NCBI GenBank assembly: GCA_964547465.1
Contig: CAZJNI010000002.1
Location: 6,043-70,042, forward strand
DNA: 64,000 bases
Direction of reading: 5' to 3'
Source of the DNA: an uncultured Gammaproteobacteria bacterium
GTDB taxonomy: Bacteria > Patescibacteriota > Microgenomatia > Daviesbacterales > UBA10151
Shown: positions 3,230 to 64,000 of the stretch, one piece after another
How positions within the stretch are numbered: position 1 is the stretch's first letter
Layout of the letters: each line of letters begins with the position of its first letter
The notes under the pieces: generated by a model
What the model was told of the DNA's origin: nothing
Databases searched by the model: none
The model's input: only the letters and a program-made list of their open reading frames with translations
Program-made: the position numbers and the translations under genes

Positions 3230-4564
3230 ATGAATAATAATTTAATGGATGAGCAAAGCTCCTCATCTTTGATGAGTAAGATAGTTGCTTTGTGTAAGCG
3301 CCGGGGATTTATATATCCCGGGTCTGAAATATATGGAGGACTTAGTGGAACTTGGGACTATGGACCTGCCGGAGCTCTTTTAAAGAAAAATATAAAAGAC
3401 CTTTGGTGGAAAGACATGGTGCAACTGCGAGAAGACATTGTAGGAGTTGATGCCGCAATCATGATGAATCCCAAAGCCTGGGAAGCATCAGGTCATGTGG
3501 AAGCTTTCAGCGACCCACTAGTTGAGTGTAAAATATGCCATGAGCGGTTTAGAGCTGATAAGGAAGATATAATTAAGAATCATGAAGCAACTCACAAAGA
3601 AAAGGTTGAATGGACAGAACCTCAACAGTTTAATCTGCTCGTTAAGGCTTATTTAGGCGTTTTGGAAGGTAAACAATCAGAAATATATTTAAGAGGAGAA
3701 ATTACCAATGGAGTTCATGTTAATTTTAAAAATGTTTTGGATTCTACCAGAGTTAAAATTCCTTTTGGAATTGCTCAAATTGGTAAGGCTTTTAGAAATG
3801 AAATAACCCCCGGCAATTTTACCTTTAGATCGAGGGAGTTTGAACAAATGGAAGTTCAATTTTACGTTAAAAATGAGAAATCAGAGGCTGAAAAGTGGTT
3901 TGAGTACTGGAAGCAAAACAGGATGGATTGGTATTTATCGCTGGGAATGAAGAAAGAAAACTTAAGGTTTAGAGAACACGCAGAAAAAGAAAGAGCACAT
4001 TATGCCAAAGCGGCATGTGACATTGAATATAATGCTCCGTTCGGCTGGTCAGAATTTATGGGGATTCATAATAGAGGTGATTGGGATTTATCCCGCCATC
4101 AAAAATACTCTGGGCAAGATATGACTTATAGAGATCCTGAATCTGGAGAGGAGTATACACCCTGGGATATTGAAACATCGGCTGGGGTAGATAGATCTGC
4201 GCTATTTATTTTGATTGATGCTTACAGTGAAGATAATGGAAGGGTTTATCTAAAACTTTCTCCAAAACTTGCTCCATACAAAGCTGCAGTATTTCCACTT
4301 CTTGCTAATAAACCGGAACTTATTAAAGTAGCCAAGAAAATTTATGATGATTTGAGAAAAGATTTTATGGTGGCTTGGGACGCCCGGGGTAATATTGGTA
4401 AAAGATATGCTAGTCAGGATGAAATCGGTACCCCTTTTTGTATAACAGTTGATTTTGATTCGCTAGGGGATGAAATGGTAACTGTCAGAGATAGGGATAG
4501 CGCCAAACAGGAAAGAGTTAAAATAGTTGACTTAAAAGATTATCTTAGTGATAGAATTAAATAA
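3230..4564 (+). CDS. glyQS: Glycine--tRNA ligase (alpha2 / GlyQS type)
   Basis: N-terminal RRGFIYPGSEIYGGLSGTWDYGPAG is characteristic of dimeric GlyRS. Class II aaRS core. 444 aa. Confidence 0.85.
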   Translation: MNNNLMDEQSSSSLMSKIVALCKRRGFIYPGSEIYGGLSGTWDYGPAGALLKKNIKDLWWKDMVQLREDIVGVDAAIMMNPKAWEASGHVEAFSDPLVECKICHERFRADKEDIIKNHEATHKEKVEWTEPQQFNLLVKAYLGVLEGKQSEIYLRGEITNGVHVNFKNVLDSTRVKIPFGIAQIGKAFRNEITPGNFTFRSREFEQMEVQFYVKNEKSEAEKWFEYWKQNRMDWYLSLGMKKENLRFREHAEKERAHYAKAACDIEYNAPFGWSEFMGIHNRGDWDLSRHQKYSGQDMTYRDPESGEEYTPWDIETSAGVDRSALFILIDAYSEDNGRVYLKLSPKLAPYKAAVFPLLANKPELIKVAKKIYDDLRKDFMVAWDARGNIGKRYASQDEIGTPFCITVDFDSLGDEMVTVRDRDSAKQERVKIVDLKDYLSDRIK

Positions 4565-5464
4565 GTGGATAAATTAAAAGTTTGGTTTGCTGCTCATAAA
4601 ACCACGGCTATCTTGGCTGTGGTATTAATATTGTTGGGGGGGTCGGGATTTTTAGGAATTCAAAAGTTTAGCTCTAAAGAAGATGGTTCAGTTGAAGAGG
4701 TTGATTTAGTTTTTGATGCAGAAGGCCCATACGCCTTAACCTTTCCCAGAAGGGATGGAAATGCTTTAATTTTAAATATTAAAAGAACAAGCTCTTATGA
4801 TTCTATATCCTATGACTTAGCATATACCTCTACTCCTGATGAAACTGTAGTTAAGGGCACTAAAGTGTTAGACGAGGGAGAAGGAGGACTAGCTGGAGGC
4901 AGTATCGATAGGGGAGTTTCAGGCCAACTAGATACGAAAGATAAAAAGGGTGAATATGAGCAGGAAATTTTGTTTGGGACTTGTTCTAAAAATGTCTGTA
5001 AATATGATAAGGGTGTTGAAAATGGAACGCTTACACTTCATATAAGAAAGGGAGATAAAGCGTATAGAATGATTACCCAGTGGCATTTGCAAAAACCAGA
5101 TGTGGCTTTGGGAAGCTTAACTTCAGGAGATAATCATTTAACTTACAAAGTGGATGGAGACAGGCAGACGCTTTCTAATATTGGATTTTCTATAATAAAT
5201 GATTTAACAGGAGTTCCAAAGTTGCCAAACGGTAAGCAAGTTTTAGGCAAAGTTTATGCCTTAAATGTGCCGATTGCCAAAGATTTAAAGAGTGGTCAGG
5301 TAAGTTTAGAGCTGGCCCAAAATCCATCTCCTGATGCCAAATTATATAGATATGATGGAAATAAGAGCAGTTGGGAGGAGTTGGATACAAAAATAGAAGG
5401 ATCTAAATTATCCTCCAAAGCCTCCGGCGCAGGTATATTTGCTGTTTTGACTTCCAAGAAATAA
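4565..5464 (+). CDS. Hypothetical membrane-anchored extracytoplasmic protein
   Basis: ORF track. Single N-terminal TM helix (TAILAVVLILLGGSGFLGI). No recognisable motif. Confidence 0.45.
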   Translation: MDKLKVWFAAHKTTAILAVVLILLGGSGFLGIQKFSSKEDGSVEEVDLVFDAEGPYALTFPRRDGNALILNIKRTSSYDSISYDLAYTSTPDETVVKGTKVLDEGEGGLAGGSIDRGVSGQLDTKDKKGEYEQEILFGTCSKNVCKYDKGVENGTLTLHIRKGDKAYRMITQWHLQKPDVALGSLTSGDNHLTYKVDGDRQTLSNIGFSIINDLTGVPKLPNGKQVLGKVYALNVPIAKDLKSGQVSLELAQNPSPDAKLYRYDGNKSSWEELDTKIEGSKLSSKASGAGIFAVLTSKK

Positions 5465-5468
5465 AAGT

Positions 5469-5903
5469 TTATAAATTTGATAAATTAGGTTGTAGTTGTG
5501 TGTTATTAACTAACCCAATATTAATATGATGTCTGTACATTAACCTATTAGCTATAATAACTCCTCCCACGAATCCTAGCATCATTGCTATGCCCCCGAG
5601 AGCACTCAAAGGACCTTTAGTTGGGAGCTCGTTTGTAAATGCTTTAGATGCTTCTGTAATTAAACCAGCCATTCCAATTGAACCTATGGTACCTCCAATT
5701 AAATTAGCAGTGAATCTACTAGTTCCCTCAACTAAGTTTTCCCAGAATCTTTTTGAACCTTTATGGCCTTGATAAATAATACTTAAGTGGCCGTTGTCTA
5801 CGAGGTCACCTCCGGATATTTCAAAGTATCTTTGTCCAATTATCTCTTCACTCATAATCAAAATTATATATGAATCTTGCGAAATGTAAATACCCCTTGA
5901 CAA
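5469..5903 (-). CDS. Hypothetical small membrane protein; the internal Met at 5855 may be the real start
   Basis: ORF track. Gly/Ala-rich hydrophobic segments. No motif recognised. Confidence 0.35.
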   Translation of the reverse strand: MSRGIYISQDSYIILIMSEEIIGQRYFEISGGDLVDNGHLSIIYQGHKGSKRFWENLVEGTSRFTANLIGGTIGSIGMAGLITEASKAFTNELPTKGPLSALGGIAMMLGFVGGVIIANRLMYRHHINIGLVNNTQLQPNLSNL

Positions 5904-5936
5904 ACAGTGTTAAAATGGCGGAAAATAGTAATAGAT

Positions 5937-5951
5937 GGTGATTTGAGGTGA
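5937..5951 (+). promoter_or_regulatory. Candidate MraZ operator: two GGTGA direct repeats at 10-nt spacing upstream of mraZ
   Basis: Sequence GGTGAtttgaGGTGA lies about 35 nt upstream of the mraZ start. MraZ proteins bind direct pentamer repeats with 10-bp periodicity in their own promoter (established for E. coli and Bacillus). Confidence 0.3.
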
Positions 5952-5986
5952 ATCAGCCATAGGCTGATAAATATTCTGCCCAGAAT

Positions 5987-6412
5987 ATGGATGTCCATAT
6001 GTTTTTGGGCGAATACAAAGTTAAATTTAGTGGTCACGGGAGAGTTATACTACCGAAAAAATTAAGAGAGGTAGTCTTTGGTGACGAGATTATATTAAGT
6101 AAAGGATTTGAAGGTTGTATTTGGGGATTTGATAAAAAGCTATGGGAAGAGCAAGCGCAAAAGCAACTTGAGATTTCGGCTGTGGAGGAAAAAGCACGGA
6201 ACTTGAGGAGATATTTATTTTCTTCGAGTATCCAGGTAGAGGTGGATGATCAAGGAAGGTTTGTTATACCAGGTAGTCTTTTGGGTTATGCGAGTCTTAC
6301 GCAAGAAGTGATAATAATTGGTGCCGGAGATCATTTTGAGGTTTGGGATAAGAATAAATGGGATAAAGAGGCAAAAAGATTGGAGAAAGAGTATGGAAGG
6401 GTATCACAGTAG
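5987..6412 (+). CDS. mraZ: Transcriptional regulator MraZ; alternative start ATG at 5999 (MFLGEY...)
   Basis: MFLGEYKVKFSGHGRVILPKKLRE plus a second repeat (QGRFVIP) give the duplicated MraZ fold. Position at the head of the dcw cluster. Confidence 0.8.
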   Translation: MDVHMFLGEYKVKFSGHGRVILPKKLREVVFGDEIILSKGFEGCIWGFDKKLWEEQAQKQLEISAVEEKARNLRRYLFSSSIQVEVDDQGRFVIPGSLLGYASLTQEVIIIGAGDHFEVWDKNKWDKEAKRLEKEYGRVSQ

Positions 6413-9365: not shown

Positions 9366-10106
9366 ATGGACCTTAAGGGTAAAGTATTTATTTTAACCGG
9401 AGCAAAAAGAGTAGGGCAGGATGTGGCCAAAACTTTGGGTGAGAGAGGCGCCAATCTGGTTATCTCTTATAACAACTCTTTAGAAGATGCTCAAGTTTTA
9501 CAAAGGGAATGTGAATCTTCTGGTGCCAGAGCGATTATCGTTAAGGCAGATTTATCCCAAAATAAAGATATAGAATCCTTGGCGGATGAAGCATTAAAGC
9601 AGTTTGGCGCAATCGATGGACTGATCCATATGGCTGCCAATTATCCCAAAACTCCTGTTGGTGGGATTACACTGGAGGATTTTGATAAAACAATGCATAT
9701 AATTGCAGCTTCTACTTTACTTTTGGGGCAAAAAATAGGAGCGCAAATGCAAAAAAATGAGGGGGATGTTAAAGGAAAAATGATTTTTTTCTCTGACTGG
9801 TCGGTTTTGAGGAATCCTTATCCGGATTATATTGTTTATAATGGGGCCAAATCAGCGGTGGAATCTTTTACCAAAAGTTTAGCAAGACAATTTGCGCCAT
9901 CTATTACTGTTAATGCTATAGCTCCCGGGCCAATCCTTAGGCCCCCCGATTTATCAGAGGAGGATAATGAGGAAGTGATGAGTAAGACTCCTTTAAAAAA
10001 ATGGGGTGGAAGTAAGGAGATTGCCAAAGCTGTTTTATATTTACTTGATGCTGATTTTGTGACAGGGATTATTTTGCCAGTTGATGGTGGCCGGTCAATT
10101 GCTTGA
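9366..10106 (+). CDS. SDR family NAD(P)-dependent oxidoreductase
   Basis: N-terminal TGAKRVGQDVAKTL Rossmann motif. Catalytic YxxxK region (YNGAKSAVE). 246 aa. An unusual insertion in the dcw cluster. Confidence 0.75.
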   Translation: MDLKGKVFILTGAKRVGQDVAKTLGERGANLVISYNNSLEDAQVLQRECESSGARAIIVKADLSQNKDIESLADEALKQFGAIDGLIHMAANYPKTPVGGITLEDFDKTMHIIAASTLLLGQKIGAQMQKNEGDVKGKMIFFSDWSVLRNPYPDYIVYNGAKSAVESFTKSLARQFAPSITVNAIAPGPILRPPDLSEEDNEEVMSKTPLKKWGGSKEIAKAVLYLLDADFVTGIILPVDGGRSIA

Positions 10107-13948: not shown

Positions 13949-13963
13949 TGATATAATCATTTT

Positions 13964-17231: not shown

Positions 17232-17252
17232 TTTTTTGAGTATAATCAAAAT

Positions 17253-26190: not shown

Positions 26191-27241
26191 GCTTATTAAT
26201 TGGCAAATCACCCTGGCAAGTTTTTTACTTGTTTGTATTGGAATTTTAATTATTTTTTCATCATCCAGGGAACTTGCCATACAGCAGATAATCTTTAGCA
26301 TTTTAGGACTTACTTTTTTCCTGATAGTTTCACAGCTTGATTTTCATGCTTTAGTGAGCTTCATAAAGCCTGCTTATTTTTTAATAATTTTTTTACTTAT
26401 TGCAGTTTTAATCTTGGGAGTAGAAACCAGGGGAACTTTGAGATGGATACCTTTAGGGATTTTCAATATTCAACCATCCGAGTTTGCAAAACCAATATTA
26501 ATTTTATTTTTAGCAAGATTCTGGTCAAATAATATTCCCTCCTGGAGAAATATTTTTAAATGCTTGCTTTGGGTTTTACCTATTTTTATTCTAATATTTA
26601 AGCAACCAGACTTGGGTTCTGCCTTAACTATTGCAGCAATCTGGTTAGGTATGTTATTTGCAGCAAAAGTTTCCCTTAAAAAAATAATTGTTATTATATT
26701 AATTAGCGCATTTATTCTTCCCTTAGGTTGGCATCTTTTGCATGATTATCAAAGACAAAGGATTATCAGCTTTTTAGCTCCTCAAAGCGACCCATTAGGT
26801 AGGGGATATAATTTAATTCAATCAACCATTGCTGTTGGATCAGGACAGTTTTTAGGAAGAGGTTTAGGAAGAGGGACTCAATCCAGGCTTCAATTTTTGC
26901 CTGAATTTAGAACTGATTTTATTTTTGCCTCAATTGCGGAGGAGATGGGACTTTTAGGTTCAGCTGTTATTTTGAGTTTATATCTTTTTATAATTGTTTA
27001 TAGTTTATTTCTTGCCAATAAAATTTCGGATCCGGCAAATTTACTCCTAATTGTTGGGGTTGTATCAATGCTTCTTTTCCAGACTTTTGTTAATATTGGA
27101 ATGAATATGGGTCTTTTACCAATTACAGGTATTACTCTGCCTTTGATTTCTTATGGCGGCAGTTCTTTAATAGCTACTTTTATATGTTTGGGACTTATCT
27201 CATCAGCCTGGAAATTTGGGAAAAGAATTGACCACGATTAG
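26177..27241 (+). CDS. rodA: SEDS-family protein, RodA-like (second SEDS copy)
   Basis: Multi-TM protein with a SEDS C-terminal region (LLPITGITLPLISYGGSSL). Confidence 0.7.
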   Translation: MLNLKLINWQITLASFLLVCIGILIIFSSSRELAIQQIIFSILGLTFFLIVSQLDFHALVSFIKPAYFLIIFLLIAVLILGVETRGTLRWIPLGIFNIQPSEFAKPILILFLARFWSNNIPSWRNIFKCLLWVLPIFILIFKQPDLGSALTIAAIWLGMLFAAKVSLKKIIVIILISAFILPLGWHLLHDYQRQRIISFLAPQSDPLGRGYNLIQSTIAVGSGQFLGRGLGRGTQSRLQFLPEFRTDFIFASIAEEMGLLGSAVILSLYLFIIVYSLFLANKISDPANLLLIVGVVSMLLFQTFVNIGMNMGLLPITGITLPLISYGGSSLIATFICLGLISSAWKFGKRIDHD

Positions 27242-27262
27242 TTTACATGTTAAAATCTCTCC

Positions 27263-27568
27263 ATGTTAAATTATGCAATCTGTGAAATAAACGGTAAACA
27301 ATATAAGATTTTCCCTAATATTCCTTTGTTGATTGATTATCAAGGCGAAAAAAATAAGGATATAGAGGCTAATGTTTTGCTAATGGAGGATGGTAAGCTG
27401 CATTTGGGAAAGCCGTATCTTAAGGAAAAATTAAATTTAAAATTTGTTGAGAATACTCAAGGAGAGAAAGTCAGAGTATCTAAATTTCATGCCAAGGCAA
27501 ATTATAGAAAAATAACAGGTAAAAGAGCAAAATTTACCAAAGTTGTTCTGAATGTGAAAAGGGCTTGA
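27263..27568 (+). CDS. rplU: 50S ribosomal protein L21
   Basis: MLNYAICEINGKQYKI... Confidence 0.85.
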   Translation: MLNYAICEINGKQYKIFPNIPLLIDYQGEKNKDIEANVLLMEDGKLHLGKPYLKEKLNLKFVENTQGEKVRVSKFHAKANYRKITGKRAKFTKVVLNVKRA

Positions 27569-27592
27569 TACGTTCATGAGACTGAACGTATC
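27567..27592. repeat. Hairpin element GATACGTTCA-tgagac-TGAACGTATC in the L21-L27 spacer
   Basis: Perfect 10-bp inverted repeat seen directly. Related to elements at 43331 and 56724. Confidence 0.6.
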
Positions 27593-27638
27593 TTGACAAT
27601 AGTTTTCACGGAGTGTATCTTACAATTGTCTTAATGTT

Positions 27639-28742: not shown

Positions 28743-29336
28743 TTATTTGTTAGTTAAAAGTCCAACGCTCGGAGGTGGCCAGTATCTAAAAAAAGCTCTT
28801 CCCACAATCTCTTCTTTGGTTACCGCTCCCCATTCTCTTGAATCAGATGAGTGTTCTCTATTATCCCCAAAAACAAAATATTGATTAGGCCCGGCTTTAA
28901 CTGTTGAACCTTCCAGAAGAAATGACCCTCCATTTGTATGGATCCCTGCAGGTAAAAATGGTTGAGAGATTATCTCATCATTTACAGAAACCGTGTTATC
29001 TGCCACTTTTATTGTATCCCCGGGGACTGCCATTATTCTTTTGATAAAATCTTGAGATTCATCCCTGGGGTTTTTTAAAACAATGATGTCTCCCTTCTTC
29101 GGTGAACCAAATCTATAACTTATTTTTTCGGTAATAATATAATCCCCATTTTGCAGGGTCGGGATCATGGAGCTTCCGGAAACTTTATGAAATTGGGCAA
29201 TAAATAAATAAATAATGAAAAAAATTGCGACACAAACAACAACAGTCTCAATAATTTCTATAAAATAGCCGCCTAATTTATTAAAAAAGCCTTTTTCTTC
29301 CCCATACCCATAACTTGTATAACCTTCAGGATCCAT
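28743..29336 (-). CDS. lepB: Signal peptidase I (S26)
   Basis: SGSSMIPTL catalytic Ser box. N-terminal TM. Confidence 0.85.
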   Translation of the reverse strand: MDPEGYTSYGYGEEKGFFNKLGGYFIEIIETVVVCVAIFFIIYLFIAQFHKVSGSSMIPTLQNGDYIITEKISYRFGSPKKGDIIVLKNPRDESQDFIKRIMAVPGDTIKVADNTVSVNDEIISQPFLPAGIHTNGGSFLLEGSTVKAGPNQYFVFGDNREHSSDSREWGAVTKEEIVGRAFFRYWPPPSVGLLTNK

Positions 29337-29401
29337 TCTTAAGATTATCGCAAAATTTCAGGTTGTGATGCAAGTACTACGGTGCTAAAATGACTTCTAA
29401 T

Positions 29402-29487
29402 GGAGTCATAGCTCAGTTGGTTTACCCGTTCAAATTTTTGCAGAGCAAAAACTTGCGCGGGTAAAGAGCGCCGCATTCATCCGCGCG
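29402..29487 (+). pseudogene. Degenerate tRNA-Val-like 5' fragment (acceptor 5' arm plus D-arm) with a ~43-nt hairpin inserted in the D-loop; not a functional tRNA
   Basis: GGAGTCATAGCTCAGTTGGTT matches the start of tRNA-Val at 29778 (GGACAAGTAGCTCAGTTGGTT). An inserted imperfect hairpin at 29422-29464 is followed by a non-pairing anticodon-arm-like stretch. No 3' acceptor complement. Confidence 0.35.
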
Positions 29488-29523
29488 AATCTTAACAGAT
29501 TCGATCGGATTCACATATAAAAT

Positions 29524-29787
29524 ATGTATTATGTATACGTTCTTAGGAGCTTAAAGGATGGAAAGTTATATTCTGGGTATACATCCAATTTGAAGCAAAG
29601 ATTGGAATACCATAATAATGGTAAGGTAGAATCTACTAAATGGAGAAAACCTTTTGAGTTGATCTATTTTGAAGGGTATAATCATCATCAAGATGCAACT
29701 GCAAGAGAAAAGTTCTTTAAGACGCAATGGGGTAGGAATTATATAAGGAGGGTGTTAAAGAATTATTGGAAAGAAATGGACAAGTAG
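29524..29787 (+). CDS. Small GIY-YIG nuclease-domain protein (YhbQ/UPF0213-like); stop codon overlaps the first 10 nt of tRNA-Val
   Basis: YVYVLRS..DGKLYSGYTSNLKQRLEYHNNG is a GIY-YIG motif. 87 aa. Confidence 0.75.
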   Translation: MYYVYVLRSLKDGKLYSGYTSNLKQRLEYHNNGKVESTKWRKPFELIYFEGYNHHQDATAREKFFKTQWGRNYIRRVLKNYWKEMDK

Positions 29788-29851
29788 CTCAGTTGGTTAG
29801 AGCGTCGCATTCACATTGCGAAGGCCACAGGTCCGAGTCCTGTCTTGTCCA
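29778..29851 (+). tRNA. tRNA-Val (anticodon CAC)
   Basis: Manual fold: acceptor GGACAAG/CTTGTCC, D-arm GCTC..GAGC, anticodon stem TCGCA/TGCGA with loop TTCACAT, T-arm ACAGG-TCCGAGT-CCTGT. No encoded CCA. Confidence 0.8.
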
Positions 29852-29852
29852 C

Positions 29853-31502
29853 TTACAGGGATTTTGTTCGATTATTGTAGTATTCAGCAACTTTTTCATC
29901 AGTTGTGTACCATCTTCCTAAAAACCAAACAGCATCCAGTCTACCTCCATGTGCATGCGGGACAAGTGATTTATCAAAACTTGCAACCCTTTTGATTCCT
30001 GCTGGATAAATAATTTTATTCTCAATAGCTTTTCTAGCGATTGATAAAGCACCTGTAATACTATCTTCAGATTTGTCTAACCCCTTTTCTATATCAGTAC
30101 TTTTTTTGCCCTGCAGCTTTAAATTAACAATTTCTAATATGTAGGGAGACAAATTTACCTCTCTGATTTTCAGCCATTCATTAAATTGTCTTAGAAAAAT
30201 ATCAACTGCCAACTCAAAGTTATCTGGTTGAGGTAAATGACGTCTTTTTTTCCGAGGTAGCCTATGATCAGAAATGGCTTTAGCAGTCTTAAAAAACCAA
30301 TTCCGAAAATTCTCATGAGAATCATTTTCTGGCATATTCTCTAACTCAACTGCAGAAAAAAGTTCAATCTGTCTTTGTGATATTGAATTGATTACTTCAA
30401 TAGGTCTAATATTATTTTGTGACGCTGTGTAAGTAGTTAAAAATTCTTTCGCATCTTCTGGTTTAATAAACCACCAGCTACCTTTTTTAACTCCTGGTAA
30501 ATATCCGCTTGCTAGTGCCTCTGTTAATCTATTTTTCACAGCAGGAGTAGCTGGAAAATCACTTACTTGTTGATATTCTTTTCCGGGAGATTTTATTCTT
30601 CTTTTCGCTCTAATTCTTTTACTTCTAAATTCATTCAACCCTTCTTGGGTGATATAGATCCTTCCTTGAGTTCGGGTTAAAAGATGTTTATATCTAAATC
30701 CTAATAGGGTTCCATACTCATCTGACGTTGTTTGTTCAGCAAGAGGTAAAAATCCTTGTTCCAGCATTGATGTACTTAGTGTAACTCTTTTATAATGATA
30801 TCTTTGCACCCATTCATCCGTTGTATACCAGCGTCCTAGAAATTTTACTGCTTCTAAACCACCTCTGCTAGCTGCTGTTGCTAGGGAGCCATCTTGATAA
30901 TCAGCTAGTAGTCTAAATCCAGCTGGATAGAATAGATTTCCTTCAATTTTGTCTCTTGCCCTATACATTAAATTAAGTACTGCCCGTTGGGTAGATCCTA
31001 ACTCGTCTATAATTTCAGATATTCCTTTACCCGCTGTTCTTAGTTCTACAGCTTTTAATTGGGCGGGGGTTAGTAATTCGGTAAGTCTATCTTTAAACCT
31101 TGGCATCAAATCTATGAAAGTAGTCTCTGTTCTCTCTTTTGGTTGCCTAACAAAAGTATCCTCAAAAGATACACCACGTGTCCTGATAATTCTCCTTAAC
31201 TCCATATTTATATTTGCTCTAGCTATAGTAAATGTCCACTTGATAAATGTCTTTGTTGGATCCTTACCTTTCAGATCAAACTCAAAAGACGGAAGAGCAG
31301 CATACATTTCTGAAAGAGTATCTTGGGTAAGGTCTTCAGCTTCGTTTGGAAGACGACGTACTAAATATCTAAATAATTCTGGTCTTAAAAAACCATCTAA
31401 TTCAGCAAAAGCCCGCTCATCTCCAGCTTTTATTCTCTTAACCACCAATGGTATATCAATTGAAGGTTTTGGTGTCCCTCTGCCTTCTGCTTCTAAAGTC
31501 AT
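29853..31502 (-). CDS. ECF-type sigma-70 family factor (regions 2 and 4) fused to a ~350-aa extension. The extension carries a second region-4-like HTH, and each HTH is followed by a repeated YPAG[FI]..GG.L.AV.FLGRWYTTDE module
   Basis: Region 2: AGDERAFAEL..LFRYLVRRLPNEAEDLTQDT..WTFTIARAN. Region 4: LTPAQLKAVELRTAGKGISEIIDELGSTQRAVLNLMYRARDKI. Internal duplication seen directly in the translation. Confidence 0.6.
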   Translation of the reverse strand: MTLEAEGRGTPKPSIDIPLVVKRIKAGDERAFAELDGFLRPELFRYLVRRLPNEAEDLTQDTLSEMYAALPSFEFDLKGKDPTKTFIKWTFTIARANINMELRRIIRTRGVSFEDTFVRQPKERTETTFIDLMPRFKDRLTELLTPAQLKAVELRTAGKGISEIIDELGSTQRAVLNLMYRARDKIEGNLFYPAGFRLLADYQDGSLATAASRGGLEAVKFLGRWYTTDEWVQRYHYKRVTLSTSMLEQGFLPLAEQTTSDEYGTLLGFRYKHLLTRTQGRIYITQEGLNEFRSKRIRAKRRIKSPGKEYQQVSDFPATPAVKNRLTEALASGYLPGVKKGSWWFIKPEDAKEFLTTYTASQNNIRPIEVINSISQRQIELFSAVELENMPENDSHENFRNWFFKTAKAISDHRLPRKKRRHLPQPDNFELAVDIFLRQFNEWLKIREVNLSPYILEIVNLKLQGKKSTDIEKGLDKSEDSITGALSIARKAIENKIIYPAGIKRVASFDKSLVPHAHGGRLDAVWFLGRWYTTDEKVAEYYNNRTKSL

Positions 31503-37058: not shown

Positions 37059-37075
37059 GACCTAAATTATAGACT

Positions 37076-43212: not shown

Positions 43213-43330
43213 TTTTTTTGGAGCAGTTTAGTTTAAGGAGCAGAATTACAAAGCATTTTTATCCTATAAACGAAAGTTTGTCAAGGGGCAATTATGTAAA
43301 CTAATTGCCTCAAGGGGGCAAATCTGCGGG

Positions 43331-43355
43331 CCACGTTCATGTAAACTGAACGTGG
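43331..43355 (-). terminator. Hairpin CCACGTTCA-tgtaaac-TGAACGTGG directly abutting and including the encoded CCA of tRNA-Asp (no U tract)
   Basis: Perfect 9-bp inverted repeat seen directly. Core ACGTTCA..TGAACGT is shared with the 27567 and 56724 elements. Confidence 0.35.
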
Positions 43356-43428
43356 CGGGGCCGACGGGAATCGAACCCGCTATCTTCTCCGTGACAGGGA
43401 GACGTGATGACCGGTTCACTACGGCCCC
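43353..43428 (-). tRNA. tRNA-Asp (anticodon GTC), CCA encoded
   Basis: Manual fold of the reverse complement: acceptor GGGGCCG/CGGCCCC, D-arm GTGA-ACCGGTCA-TCAC, anticodon stem TCTCC/GGAGA with loop CTGTCAC, T-arm GCGGG-TTCGATT-CCCGT, then GCCA. Confidence 0.85.
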
Positions 43429-43449
43429 AACTTCTGATATATTAGCATC

Positions 43450-55456: not shown

Positions 55457-55822
55457 TTGAACATGAATTCAAAACAGTTTGGAGATTATGGGGAGGATTT
55501 GGCAGTTTGGTATTTAAAGAAGCAAGGGTATGAGATTCTGGAAAGAAATTACCGGATTAGTGGTGGGGAGATAGATATTGTGGCAATGGATGGGGAGACT
55601 TTGGTGTTTGTGGAAGTAAAGAGTAGATGGTCACATGAATTTGGCCCGCCTGCCGAATCTATGACTCCCTGGAAAATTAAATATTTAGTAAAAACCGCTC
55701 AATTTTATGTTTTAAAAATAAACTGGGAAGACAAAGAATATAGATTAGATTTTATTTCTATTGATTTTGCAGATGATCCCGAAAATCCCAAGATTGAGCT
55801 AATCAAAAATATTACTTCTTAG
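55457..55822 (+). CDS. yraN: YraN-family (UPF0102) endonuclease-like protein
   Basis: GDYGEDLAVWYLKKQGYEILERNYR..GEIDIVAMDGETLVFVEVKSR is the classic UPF0102 pattern. Confidence 0.75.
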   Translation: MNMNSKQFGDYGEDLAVWYLKKQGYEILERNYRISGGEIDIVAMDGETLVFVEVKSRWSHEFGPPAESMTPWKIKYLVKTAQFYVLKINWEDKEYRLDFISIDFADDPENPKIELIKNITS

Positions 55823-56687
55823 AGTTTCCTTCAACCGCGAATGGAATCTCTTTCCAGTCATGTACTTTCCTGATTTTTTTATCATACTTCCACATTGTTT
55901 CCAGTAAGCTATTGTCTACGCCCATTTTTTTAAACTCTCCCATTATTGCCACCAGGTCTTTGGGAAAACATTTACCTCCAAAGCCTCGCTGCGTGGTAAC
56001 TTCCAGATGATAATCTCCGATTCTGTGATCAAATGCCGCCATTTCTTTTACTTCCTCATATTTAATACCCAGCTTTTGACAGTAATCATAAAAATAATTG
56101 GCAAAAGTAACTTTCATTGACAAAAAAGCATTGGCAAAATATTTAACGCATTCTGCAGTGGTAGGGTCTGTAAAAAATATTTTTTGTTTGGGAAATCTTT
56201 GCCTGAAAATTATTCCAACACTTCTTAAAACCCAATCAGAATCTGCTCCCAAAACAGTTCTTTCCGCATTTAAAAAATCCTCCAGATAATTTGCTTCAGT
56301 TAAAAATTCCGGGTTAAAACAGAATTTAGATTTGGGATATTTCTTTTGAAATTTAGCGGTTGTCCCGGGAATTACTGTAGATTTGATGATGATTATTTTA
56401 TCTGTGTTATCTGTTAATTTGGTTATTTGGGGAATCATATCCTCAAAAATTGATAAATCTATGCCTGATTCATCAGCTTTCATAGGGGTGGGAAGACAGA
56501 CAAAAATAAAATCTGAATTCTTTATTACATTCTCCAGTGGTTCTCCGTCCTTAAATTTGTCATACCATTTTATGGTATCCAGGCCGTTTGAGACAGTTTT
56601 AAAGCCGTTGGCCACAGCCTGGCCCACAAAGCCATACCCGATGATGCCGATTTTGATGGGAATTAATAATGCATCAGTAGTATCCAT
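55812..56687 (-). CDS. Nucleotide-sugar dehydrogenase (UDP-glucose/GDP-mannose dehydrogenase family), short form
   Basis: N-terminal GIIGYGFVGQAV Rossmann motif. Active-site-like GFGGKCFPKDL resembles the UDPG-DH catalytic Cys motif GFGGSCFPKD. Confidence 0.6.
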   Translation of the reverse strand: MDTTDALLIPIKIGIIGYGFVGQAVANGFKTVSNGLDTIKWYDKFKDGEPLENVIKNSDFIFVCLPTPMKADESGIDLSIFEDMIPQITKLTDNTDKIIIIKSTVIPGTTAKFQKKYPKSKFCFNPEFLTEANYLEDFLNAERTVLGADSDWVLRSVGIIFRQRFPKQKIFFTDPTTAECVKYFANAFLSMKVTFANYFYDYCQKLGIKYEEVKEMAAFDHRIGDYHLEVTTQRGFGGKCFPKDLVAIMGEFKKMGVDNSLLETMWKYDKKIRKVHDWKEIPFAVEGNSKK

Positions 56688-56714
56688 GGCAAATAGTATA
56701 AAGTATCATGTATC

Positions 56715-57155
56715 ATGTATCAAGATACGTTTATGAAGCTAAACGTATCAAGTGTCATGAAAGTAATCCAAAAAGTAGCTTTGGCTTTTTTTAAAAATGG
56801 GAAAATGCTGCAGGTAAGAACCAAAAAGCAGAATGAGATATTTTATACCCTGGGAGGGAAAATAGAAAAAGGGGAATCTGATTTAGAGTGTTTAAAAAGA
56901 GAGGTAAAAGAGGAAATAGGTTGTGGAATTGATGATGGATCATTAAAGTTCTTAAAAGAATTTGAGGACGTGGCACATGGGGGCGGAATTTTAAATCTTA
57001 AGTTATATGAAGGGAAAATAATCGGGGAGCCAAAAGCTTCTTCAGAAATTGTAGAAATTGGATATTTTGATACTCAATCAGATCCTAAAAAATTATCTGT
57101 TATTGCACAAAGAACAATCTTTCCCTGGCTTAAGATGCATGGATACATAAATTAA
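56715..57155 (+). CDS. NUDIX hydrolase; alternative start at 56757 (MKVIQK...) would place the hairpin in the 5' leader
   Basis: Nudix box GGKIEKGESDLECLKREVKEEIG. Confidence 0.75.
   Translation: MYQDTFMKLNVSSVMKVIQKVALAFFKNGKMLQVRTKKQNEIFYTLGGKIEKGESDLECLKREVKEEIGCGIDDGSLKFLKEFEDVAHGGGILNLKLYEGKIIGEPKASSEIVEIGYFDTQSDPKKLSVIAQRTIFPWLKMHGYIN
56724..56749. promoter_or_regulatory. Hairpin GATACGTTTA-tgaagc-TAAACGTATC plus GTATCAT direct repeats in the divergent dehydrogenase/Nudix control region
   Basis: Perfect 10-bp inverted repeat seen directly. Sister of the 27567 element, with a compensatory C/T change. Confidence 0.5.
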
Positions 57156-63510: not shown

Positions 63511-64000
63511 CTACCTTGTACCGATTGTTGTCTGGAATGTTTCAGTCTGATTGTTCCCGCCTGTTTTTATAACTTTACTTTTAATAATAAAGCTGACTTG
63601 AACTGTATTATTTGTACCTCCGGAAATGCCGAGTGTTGTAAAGTTGAGATTAGAAATTGTGGTATCTGCGCTATTTAATTGATCAACTGTGGGGTTTGTA
63701 ATCAGCAAATTATTATTCCCATCAAGTGAATAAGTATAGTTTGTTCCGTCAACAATAATTTGTAGAGAAGCAGCTGAATTGCCAATAGCTGGACTAACAA
63801 TTGAGCTAGCCCGGTGAATATCATAGGAAAGTCTGGAGGTAATAAATCTGCCATCCTGGGTGACACTGGAAGTGGCTTCAGACTCCAGTTTTACATCCAA
63901 AATAGAACCAAAAAACCGCATTAAGGTAACCAGCAAAATAGAAAAAATTCCCATATACAAAAGCATTTCTACAAGACTGAAGCCACGTTCATGTGATAAA
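63511..64000 (-). CDS. Type IV pilin-like protein, 5'-partial (start lies beyond the window end)
   Basis: Extending the frame past the annotated Met gives ...HERGFSLVEMLLYMGIFSILLVTL, i.e. a G/FSLVE prepilin cleavage motif. No stop before nt 64000. Confidence 0.7.
   Translation of the reverse strand, partial: LSHERGFSLVEMLLYMGIFSILLVTLMRFFGSILDVKLESEATSSVTQDGRFITSRLSYDIHRASSIVSPAIGNSAASLQIIVDGTNYTYSLDGNNNLLITNPTVDQLNSADTTISNLNFTTLGISGGTNNTVQVSFIIKSKVIKTGGNNQTETFQTTIGTR

Follow-up and report, generated by a model that had tools for sequence, protein, structure and literature searches.

Perfect 26-bp hairpins in the scarce intergenic DNA of Microgenomates: probable copies of a very small non-autonomous mobile element

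The DNA analysed here is a 64,000-nt stretch (the window), positions 6,043 to 70,042 of contig CAZJNI010000002.1 in assembly GCA_964547465.1, which is deposited as an uncultured Gammaproteobacteria bacterium; its GTDB lineage is Daviesbacterales (Microgenomatia), and its best named protein matches are Candidatus Daviesbacteria. It contains a family of closely related hairpins, one of them in the spacer between the L21 and L27 genes, that on sequence comparison are probably copies of a mobile DNA element, very small and non-autonomous, that belongs to Microgenomates within the candidate phyla radiation (CPR). They would be selfish DNA rather than operators or classical terminators.

Three copies are present in the window, with the sequences that an initial annotation had reported; the third was recognised there as a hairpin at 43331-43355, but its real extent is one base pair more on each side. 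These copies, and a related hairpin close to the third, are as follows.

27567-27592: element copy 1, a perfect 10+6+10 palindrome, GATACGTTCA tgagac TGAACGTATC, in the L21-L27 spacer; flanked by TT at 27565-27566 and TT at 27593-27594
56724-56749: element copy 2, a perfect 10+6+10 palindrome, GATACGTTTA tgaagc TAAACGTATC, the compensated T/A variant; flanked by AA and AA (TT and TT on the minus strand)
43330-43356: element copy 3, 10+7+10, GCCACGTTCA tgtaaac TGAACGTGGC, at the tRNA-Asp 3' end; flanked by GG and GG (CC and CC on the tRNA strand)
43287-43309: related hairpin, GGCAATTA tgtaaac TAATTGCC, with the loop of copy 3 and a different stem

The pattern ACGTTYA-N4-10-TRAACGT matches the window three times and has no match in 100 dinucleotide-preserving shuffles. 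With up to three mismatches allowed, the full 26-mer pattern finds sites 1 and 2 only, and nothing in the shuffles, and there are seven perfect hairpins with stems of at least 10 bp in the window as against 0-3 (mean ~0.7) in 20 shuffles. The window has a G+C content of ~36% and is ~96% coding, with gaps of 15 nt or more totalling 2,340 nt (3.7%), and all three copies lie within this intergenic fraction. Rfam 15 recognises only tRNAs in the window at the gathering score, and nothing relevant at five hairpin loci at E <= 1.

The hairpin at 43287-43309, which the initial annotation did not list, has an 8-nt direct repeat (TCAAGGGG) on both sides and, on the minus strand, adjoins the LysM promoter at its -35 box. 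The hairpin is extra DNA, relatives reading TTGTCAAG(A/G)GGGCAAAT with no hairpin; its membership of the family is uncertain because the stem differs and there is no 2-nt repeat. The 9-mer AGTTTACAT, which is the loop plus closing bases of the 43287 and 43330 hairpins, occurs also at 27239-27247, in the L21 promoter spacer and overlapping the FtsW stop codon; recurrence of this 9-mer is at chance level. A further site listed at the outset as sharing the core, 63983-63993, does lie in a prepilin leader coding sequence (minus strand, ..HERGFSLVEML..; the full ORF is visible in L121), but it is a single arm after which no partner arm follows; for that reason we do not count it as a member, and it is best read as a coding coincidence.

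The palindrome GATACGTTYA-N5-7-TRAACGTATC was searched for in 185,579 genomes, one per species, and found at 32 loci (comparison loci are given L numbers throughout). About 23 of these are from Patescibacteria/Microgenomates metagenome-assembled genomes (MAGs), including Amesbacteria (L003), Daviesbacteria (L021), Levybacteria (L023 and L027), a 'Patescibacteria group' genome (L005) and MAGs syntenic with them. Some loci are in third-party-annotation MAGs labelled 'uncultured Gammaproteobacteria', L008 among them, and these labels are unreliable because L008 is plainly orthologous to L005 and L023. The remaining matches, from Bacteroidales and Clostridia, look like chance or coding matches, and their Y/R positions are often uncompensated. 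Apart from the hairpin, the window has no further nucleotide similarity with the hairpin loci. When the outer three positions are relaxed more members appear, with the outer pairs ACTACGTTCA, GCTACGTTCA and GCCACGTTCA, always complementary, and all of the 29 copies checked are intergenic. At least 14 copies are present in a single MAG (CAZTFV01), and a copy at gltX is retained in three species (L005, L008 and L023). In a viral collection the relaxed pattern finds one full copy, CT GATACGTTCA tgtaaac TGAACGTATC CT, on an IMG/VR contig (L225, 5857-5883); the other viral matches look like chance. In L021 a ~140-nt block comprising a hairpin, a TTGACA-18-TAAACT promoter and a leader is duplicated (4876-5010 and 5870-6010) around a cassette of two genes resembling a toxin-antitoxin pair.

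Thirty distinct copies were compared by extending each palindrome maximally and comparing the two bases on each side, with re-paired flanks as the control. The arms are perfect and exactly 10 bp long in 28 of the 30, with the consensus (G/A)(A/C)(T/C)ACGTT(C/T)A, and the centre is 5, 6, 7 or 8 nt (14 nt in one copy), for a total of 25-28 bp in nearly all copies. A direct repeat of 2 nt flanks 27 of the 30 copies, where 0.19 are expected from re-paired flanks, and the flanking dinucleotides are of four kinds: TT, CT, CC and TG. The centre is found in both orientations relative to the flanks, even at orthologous sites (TTTAA in L005, TTAAA in L008 and L023). All of the arm variants are compensated: GAT/ATC, GCC/GGC, GCT/AGC, ACT/AGT, and C-G versus T-A at arm position 9. 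This last change, noted initially between sites 1 and 2 and taken as a sign of selection on structure, is real and recurs, always compensated, in L012 and L021. Selection on structure is correct in substance, with the qualification that the pairing constraint looks like that of Watson-Crick DNA rather than of RNA; there is no G·T pair among the ~300 stem pairs of the 30 copies.

Two other descriptions of these sequences were considered and set aside. The flanks had been viewed as TTGA-type duplications of 5-8 nt, or as a target tetranucleotide in the style of IS200/IS605 (the target sites of ISDra2 and IS608 being TTGAT and TCAA, respectively); this was replaced by 10-bp arms with a 2-nt duplication, which fits 27 of the 30 copies and both exact empty sites. 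The palindrome itself might be read as a promoter (TTGATA-18-TATCTT), but in the CT and CC variants the -35 match is gone, and there is no gene downstream.

Related genomes have the orthologous positions of the window copies empty, and at sites 1 and 3 the empty site (cTTGAC and GGCCCCGCAGA, respectively) carries the flanking dinucleotide once. Anatomy and empty sites together therefore describe an element of terminal inverted repeats (TIRs) with a target duplication. The neighbouring features are these.

Site 1 neighbours: FtsW/RodA, L21, L27 and ParB
27593-27621, plus strand: sigma-70-like L27 promoter, TTGACA-17-TATCTT, adjoining copy 1; a 10/12 consensus match only
Site 2 neighbours, divergent: UDP-glucose dehydrogenase (UGDH)-like gene at 55812-56687, minus strand, and Nudix gene at 56757-57155, plus strand
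56695-56723, minus strand: sigma-70-like promoter of the UGDH-like gene, TTGATA-17-TATACT, then 7 nt and ATG, adjoining copy 2; a 10/12 consensus match only
Site 3 neighbours: LysM gene (minus strand), tRNA-Asp (minus strand) and PolX
43353-43428, minus strand: tRNA-Asp(GTC), whose terminal G-CCA (43353-43356) is at the same time the first four bases of copy 3; the Rfam end is 43356

Many genes of the window have a -10 box (TATAAT or TAAAAT) 5-9 nt before the start codon and no Shine-Dalgarno sequence (for example 13949-13963, 17232-17252, 27242-27262 and 37059-37075), and the genome looks largely leaderless.

The TTGA into which copy 1 is inserted has two roles: it contains the stop codon of L21 (TGA), and the -35 box of L27 starts with it. 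In the nearest relatives, L038 and L035 (GTGAAAAnnnnTTGACT...), this site is empty, the L21 stop and -35 box reading cTTGAC: L038 has GTGAAAAcctcTTGACTtcgGTTTTCAC..TATACT..ATG and L035 is similar, and the window has GTGAAAAgggcTT, the hairpin GATACGTTCATGAGACTGAACGTATC, and TTGACAataGTTTTCAC. Both relatives are short by exactly 28 nt, corresponding to the 26-mer and the second TT (a gap of 27-28 columns in the alignment), and a metagenome scan with L27 found 80 loci, none with the site-1 hairpin. A homologous TTGACT-N-TATACT is present in L038, L035 and L037; the L27 -35 box was in place before copy 1 was inserted.

Two other features of this spacer were seen. In L037 (~2945-2975) an unrelated small hairpin, CCCC gaatgtaattga GGGG, occupies the same L21 stop/L27 -35 junction, with TTAA on one side and TTGA on the other. 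The window (27552-27558 and 27602-27609) also has an inverted pair, GTGAAAA/(G)TTTTCAC, which is found in L034-L054 and L068 as well; it occurs in the 110 nt before the L27 start in 16 of 47 L27 loci, among them 13 of the 17 closest relatives, against a background of 0.05 per 110 nt. One member is usually 3-4 nt past the -35 box, and in the window the loop is split by the 28-nt insertion. The pair may be an operator, or a leader hairpin, of rpmA that Microgenomates have conserved.

At site 2 the spacer between Nudix and UGDH is 29-30 nt long, with no hairpin, in the syntenic loci L114, L115 and L118 (UGDH 81-89% identical), versus 69 nt in the window. Beside copy 2, at 56703-56723, tandem 7-mers (GTATCAT GTATCAT GTATCAA) form the spacer of the dehydrogenase promoter; relatives do not have them.

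Copy 3 is inserted directly before the discriminator position of tRNA-Asp. The hairpin is indeed fused to the CCA end of the tRNA, as had been remarked, but the G-CCA belongs to the insert, because L244 has an identical tRNA-Asp with neither CCA nor hairpin (..TCGGCCCCG/CAGAAATC, that is GGCCCCG/CAGA); the remaining five tRNA genes of the window do not encode CCA. The site is empty also in L242 (..GAGCCCG/CAGATATC), and the window reads ..TCGGCC CC, then the hairpin GCCACGTTCAGTTTACATGAACGTGGC, then CC GCAGATTTG. In L120 it is filled by an identical hairpin. The unit of tRNA-Asp and hairpin is inverted between the window (43213-43449) and L120 (8669-10000), and L119 has a different tRNA-Asp gene here (9855-10043) with no hairpin; this spot appears to be a local rearrangement hot spot. 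L120 also has a related imperfect hairpin, ACTACGATTTG gtttaca CAAACGTAGT, at 6343-6370, ~20 nt past tRNA-Thr.

Among the possibilities raised in the initial annotation, that of a dispersed element resembling repetitive extragenic palindromes (REPs) is the one that these results support: the hairpins are found in many Microgenomates genomes, always between genes, with 2-nt direct repeats and with orthologous sites that are empty.

In two MAGs, CAZTFV and CAZSQB, a larger repeat of 147-170 nt, running from TTGA.. to ..TCAA, has the 26-mer and its TT repeats as its core. At least 15 copies are present in the two (L002, L004, L006, L010, L011, L013, L014, L018, L019, L022, L025, L029, L032 and L033), and the repeat folds into a three-way junction (-62 kcal/mol, z = -7.3). 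Across 15 copies the arms of this composite repeat are ~20% divergent, in part by changes that are G-U-compatible on one strand, and the core is invariant, for which homogenisation by a mobilising activity is one possibility. Four of the composite copies have a nested 20-nt GC palindrome, CCTGCCTGCCGGCAGGCAGG.

The hairpins might alternatively have a function as RNA, either as terminators that depend on a factor or need no U-tract or else in stabilising or processing 3' ends, and their spread would then be secondary; a terminator-like RNA motif had been among the initial suggestions. We regard such a primary nature as unlikely. Several copies are placed as it would predict: copy 1 begins 2 nt inside the L21 stop codon, copy 3 is at a tRNA 3' end and is identical in L120, where a related hairpin follows tRNA-Thr, the L016a copy overlaps a stop codon, and that of L012 lies 28 nt past one. 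The stems are also stable, with free energies of -13.6 (copy 1, z = -4.1), -14.2/-12.9 and -20.4 kcal/mol and z-scores from -3.4 to -5.7, and the window shows no enrichment of canonical intrinsic terminators (11 versus 14.7 expected). However, there is no U-tract, and a terminator scan calls none of the three sites, after which no T-run follows. Copy 2 and the copy shared by L005, L008 and L023 lie between divergent genes, where there is nothing to terminate, and close relatives have the orthologous genes with no hairpin. The ~300 stem pairs include no G·U, although RNA tolerates it; the orientation of the loop relative to transcription is not constant; and the 2-nt direct repeats have no rationale in RNA. 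Since the stems are stable, a secondary effect on transcript ends is possible.

A protein-coding gene is repeatedly found beside the hairpins. In L120 the tRNA-Asp hairpin identical to that of the window is followed after 13 nt by an 86-aa open reading frame (ORF) of the GIY-YIG nuclease family (PF01541; 8883-9140), and in L003 (Amesbacteria) a family hairpin is followed after 9 nt by the ATG of a homologue (3908-4159). Altogether, L120, L003, L245-254, L255 and L256 have a GIY-YIG ORF with one to three family hairpins 6-94 nt upstream, mostly directly after a tRNA. The hairpin precedes GIY-YIG in five of five contexts, three of which (L245, L255/L256) were fetched blind, by way of two proteins alone; in all three blind contexts the family hairpins lie between the tRNA and the ORF. 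Two of the blind arrangements are these.

tRNA-Trp, then CTACGTTCA..TGAACGTAG
tRNA-Asp, ..GATC CC, then the hairpin GCTACGTTCA tgtaaac TGAACGTAGC, then CC GCCA, then a second degenerate copy

In L255 and L256 degenerate and nested hairpin copies accumulate upstream of the gene. A profile search recovered 693 proteins of this kind, and across Daviesbacteria, Levybacteria, Woesebacteria and Roizmanbacteria their identity is 70-88%; those of L120, L003 and L245-L264 are 83-90 aa long, and the Woesebacteria gene is in a LysM..tRNA-Asp..PolX neighbourhood, as in the lineage of the window. No relatives of the protein were found in the viral collection. The protein matches the NMR structures 1zg2 and 1ywl, which belong to the bacterial branch of the Slx1 family and are minimal stand-alone GIY-YIG domains (PMC1564403); eukaryotic Slx1 is a structure-specific endonuclease (PMC1564403). 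The cuts made by other GIY-YIG nucleases have a 2-nt 3' stagger. T4 SegB, which belongs to these enzymes, is encoded among tRNA genes, and the motif that it recognises is a tRNA stem-loop (PMC2330249). Such a stagger would fit the 2-nt duplications. A tblastn search with IS608 TnpA and Escherichia coli RAYT gave nothing below E = 0.4 in the window and the 32 loci (64 kb plus ~240 kb). The Slx1-like nuclease is a candidate, which we put forward tentatively, for the enzyme that mobilises the hairpins in trans.

The window itself has one stand-alone gene of this kind, and it is not of the hairpin-linked subfamily.

29524-29787, plus strand: stand-alone GIY-YIG gene, 87 aa, a distant paralogue with 49% identity to the hairpin-linked subfamily

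This ORF ends within tRNA-Val (29778-29852). Upstream of it, in the region 29402-29852, there is a tRNA-like 5' fragment, GGAGTCATAGCTCAGTTGGTT..., broken by a long hairpin; a tRNA with an intron was considered, but neither ARAGORN -i nor Rfam (29300-29900, E <= 1) calls one.

The association with GIY-YIG genes admits another account, in which a larger element, such as a tRNA-adjacent GIY-YIG cassette, inserted and was excised, and the hairpins are the footprints or solo ends that stayed behind. It would explain why hairpins stand at the upstream edge of GIY-YIG genes, why the window has tRNA-Asp and hairpin and lacks the gene that follows the identical hairpin in L120, and why degenerate and nested copies precede the gene in L255 and L256. 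It does not lead one to expect arms of a constant 10 bp, or the same 26-mer at loci as unrelated as L21/L27, UGDH/Nudix, gltX and secE; there is no matching hairpin with a 2-nt repeat downstream of the GIY-YIG ORFs, and at least 14 identical cores are found in one MAG with no GIY-YIG gene nearby. We find this account improbable.

An operator of a dimeric transcription factor, likewise suggested at the outset, was prompted by position: copies 1 and 2 lie directly upstream of TTGACA and TTGATA -35 boxes with 17-nt spacers, and so do the gltX copy in L005, L008 and L023 and those at two L021 promoters. Yet the arms are separated by 5, 6, 7, 8 or 14 nt, which a dimer on duplex DNA would not tolerate, a protein does not need symmetric compensated changes, the orthologous L27 and UGDH/Nudix promoters do not have the site, and copies occur also after tRNAs and within the composite repeat. 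Insertion into the box at its TTGA, with duplication of TT, accounts for the adjacency, and we hold an operator to be very improbable. The boxes of LexA, Rex, CRP and ArgR have half-sites in the opposite orientation and fixed spacing, and do not fit. Chance similarity of unrelated hairpins, with which the half-site at 63983 and the 9-mer in the L21 promoter are compatible, has a negligible probability and is refuted for sites 1-3 by the absence of matches in 100 shuffles and the identical 26-mers in unrelated genomes; the initial annotation had already called chance unlikely for sites 1 and 2, on account of the compensatory substitution.

The comparisons show insertion into the scarce intergenic DNA, the targets in the window being the TTGA of the L21 stop codon and L27 -35 box, the divergent promoter spacer of UGDH and Nudix, and the 3' end of tRNA-Asp. 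Resident signals were kept at each site, the stop codon and TTGACA box being regenerated and a G-CCA being supplied to the tRNA. That copies adjoin -35 boxes would follow from the fact that this DNA is nearly all promoter, and insertion at TT or CT before GA hits TTGACA and regenerates the box. The constraint behind the perfect arms and the flipped centre presumably acts on DNA, as a hairpin or cruciform or by templating of one arm from the other, and not on RNA. A staggered break of 2 nt followed by fill-in would leave the 2-nt duplication. The enzyme would act in trans, and its best candidate is the stand-alone Slx1-like GIY-YIG nuclease, which might recognise the extruded hairpin or cruciform and make 2-nt staggered cuts in the target, leading to insertion, loop flip-flop and homogenisation of copies. 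Effects on the host would be secondary: the L21 message and the tRNA-Asp precursor would end in a stable stem (-13 to -20 kcal/mol), located just upstream of -35 boxes. On this scheme the 26-bp palindromes are conceivably the non-autonomous partners of a domesticated or selfish Slx1-like nuclease, analogous to REPs and RAYT with a different nuclease fold, and with tRNA 3' ends as their home base; we offer this partnership as a possibility rather than an expectation.

Several points weigh against a mobile and selfish element. The source genome is seen over 64 kb only, which bears on both copy number and presence or absence within the species, and the taxonomic labels of several hairpin-bearing MAGs are unverified and unreliable. 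Neither a transposition intermediate nor an autonomous partner with the same ends is in evidence, nor was any known transposase detected in the loci searched. The window and L120 have the tRNA-Asp copy in 100% conserved form, their PolX being 78% identical, and this conserved copy, or that at gltX in L005, L008 and L023, could reflect function rather than neutrality. Three of the 30 copies do not have the 2-nt repeat. An invariant core inside arms that have diverged by ~20% is not predicted for a purely neutral selfish element. As to the nuclease, the cognate gene of the L120 type is not in the window, the GIY-YIG gene that is present has no family hairpin directly upstream, and the other hairpin loci have no GIY-YIG gene within ~4 kb; the proximity seen elsewhere could be that of two selfish elements gathering in the same permissive tRNA-adjacent spacers.

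Should the hairpins be mobile, they would mean that mobile DNA persists under extreme streamlining, by means of a 26-bp element that enters -35 boxes, stop codons and tRNA ends and regenerates each signal. Active selfish DNA is unexpected in the genomes of CPR/Patescibacteria, which are among the most compact known. A true link with GIY-YIG would give a role to the widespread bacterial Slx1-like/UPF0213 proteins of unknown function, and would add a third class of nuclease, besides DDE and HUH, that mobilises miniature repeats. For annotation, these hairpins should probably not be taken for operators or terminators, and the 'encoded CCA' of this tRNA-Asp appears to be an insertion artefact. The elements may also mark points of recent rearrangement, such as the tRNA-Asp inversion relative to L120.

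The literature searched contained no description of REP elements or of miniature inverted-repeat transposable elements (MITEs) in CPR/Patescibacteria. The closest known systems are as follows. REPs are palindromic, extragenic and dispersed sequences of ~20-60 bp, present as singlets or in composite repeats, that form hairpins in single-stranded DNA or mRNA (PMC3116915), and a nuclease whose single-copy gene is flanked by repeats presumably mobilises them in trans (PMC3116915). The CPR element is like REPs and REPINs in being short, palindromic, extragenic (29 of 29), dispersed and variably present, and in occurring also within composite repeats. It differs in that its palindrome is perfect where that of REPs is imperfect, there is no GTAG head, and 2-nt direct repeats flank the copies. 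The gene beside the repeats encodes a GIY-YIG nuclease and not an HUH enzyme, with no RAYT or IS200 TnpA detected in the 64 kb and ~240 kb of loci. REPs and REPINs number hundreds per genome, whereas tens are seen for the CPR element (3 per 64 kb; at least 14 in the parts of one MAG that were covered).

MITEs such as the Correia/NEMIS elements of Neisseria share with the CPR element the TIRs, a short target duplication of fixed size, the absence of coding capacity, an intergenic position often against promoters, and presence or absence between relatives. The features of a MITE are seen here as 10-bp TIRs in 28 of the 30 copies, a 2-nt duplication in 27, and orthologous sites both empty and filled. 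However, the CPR element is 25-28 bp long, essentially two 10-bp TIRs, as compared with ~100-150 bp or more for MITEs. Its target dinucleotide is not TA, the target duplication of Correia, and no parent insertion sequence is known. The nearest analogues in size are the small dispersed repeats (SDRs) of heterocystous cyanobacteria, which are unrelated in sequence and phylum; SDRs, according to Elhai et al. in 2008, are reportedly 21-27 nt long, in some cases hairpin-forming, mobile by comparison of orthologous sites, often nested in other repeats, and of unknown mechanism.

Palindrome-associated transposable elements (PATEs), which derive from IS200/IS605, resemble the CPR element in the recognition of a DNA hairpin and in being small non-autonomous derivatives, and the CAZTFV composite repeat has TTGA at its start and TCAA at its end. 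Elements of the IS200/IS605 type do not duplicate their target and require a Y1 TnpA, whereas a 2-nt duplication is the rule in the CPR element and TnpA was not found in the window and the 32 loci. T4 SegB is similar in that a GIY-YIG gene lies among tRNA genes and its product leaves 2-nt 3' overhangs (PMC2330249), the CPR genes lying after tRNAs and the repeats having 2-nt duplications. The CPR protein, however, is a catalytic domain of ~85 aa only, of the bacterial Slx1-like/UPF0213 branch (PMC1564403), with no DNA-binding domain, and homing endonucleases spread their own gene and not a 26-bp palindrome. The CPR element is thus both REP-like and MITE-like, departs from each in defining features, and is smaller than known MITEs; if the nuclease partnership is real, it would represent a new class of prokaryotic mobile DNA, and the smallest element with TIRs and target-site duplications known, in the ultra-streamlined genomes of the CPR.

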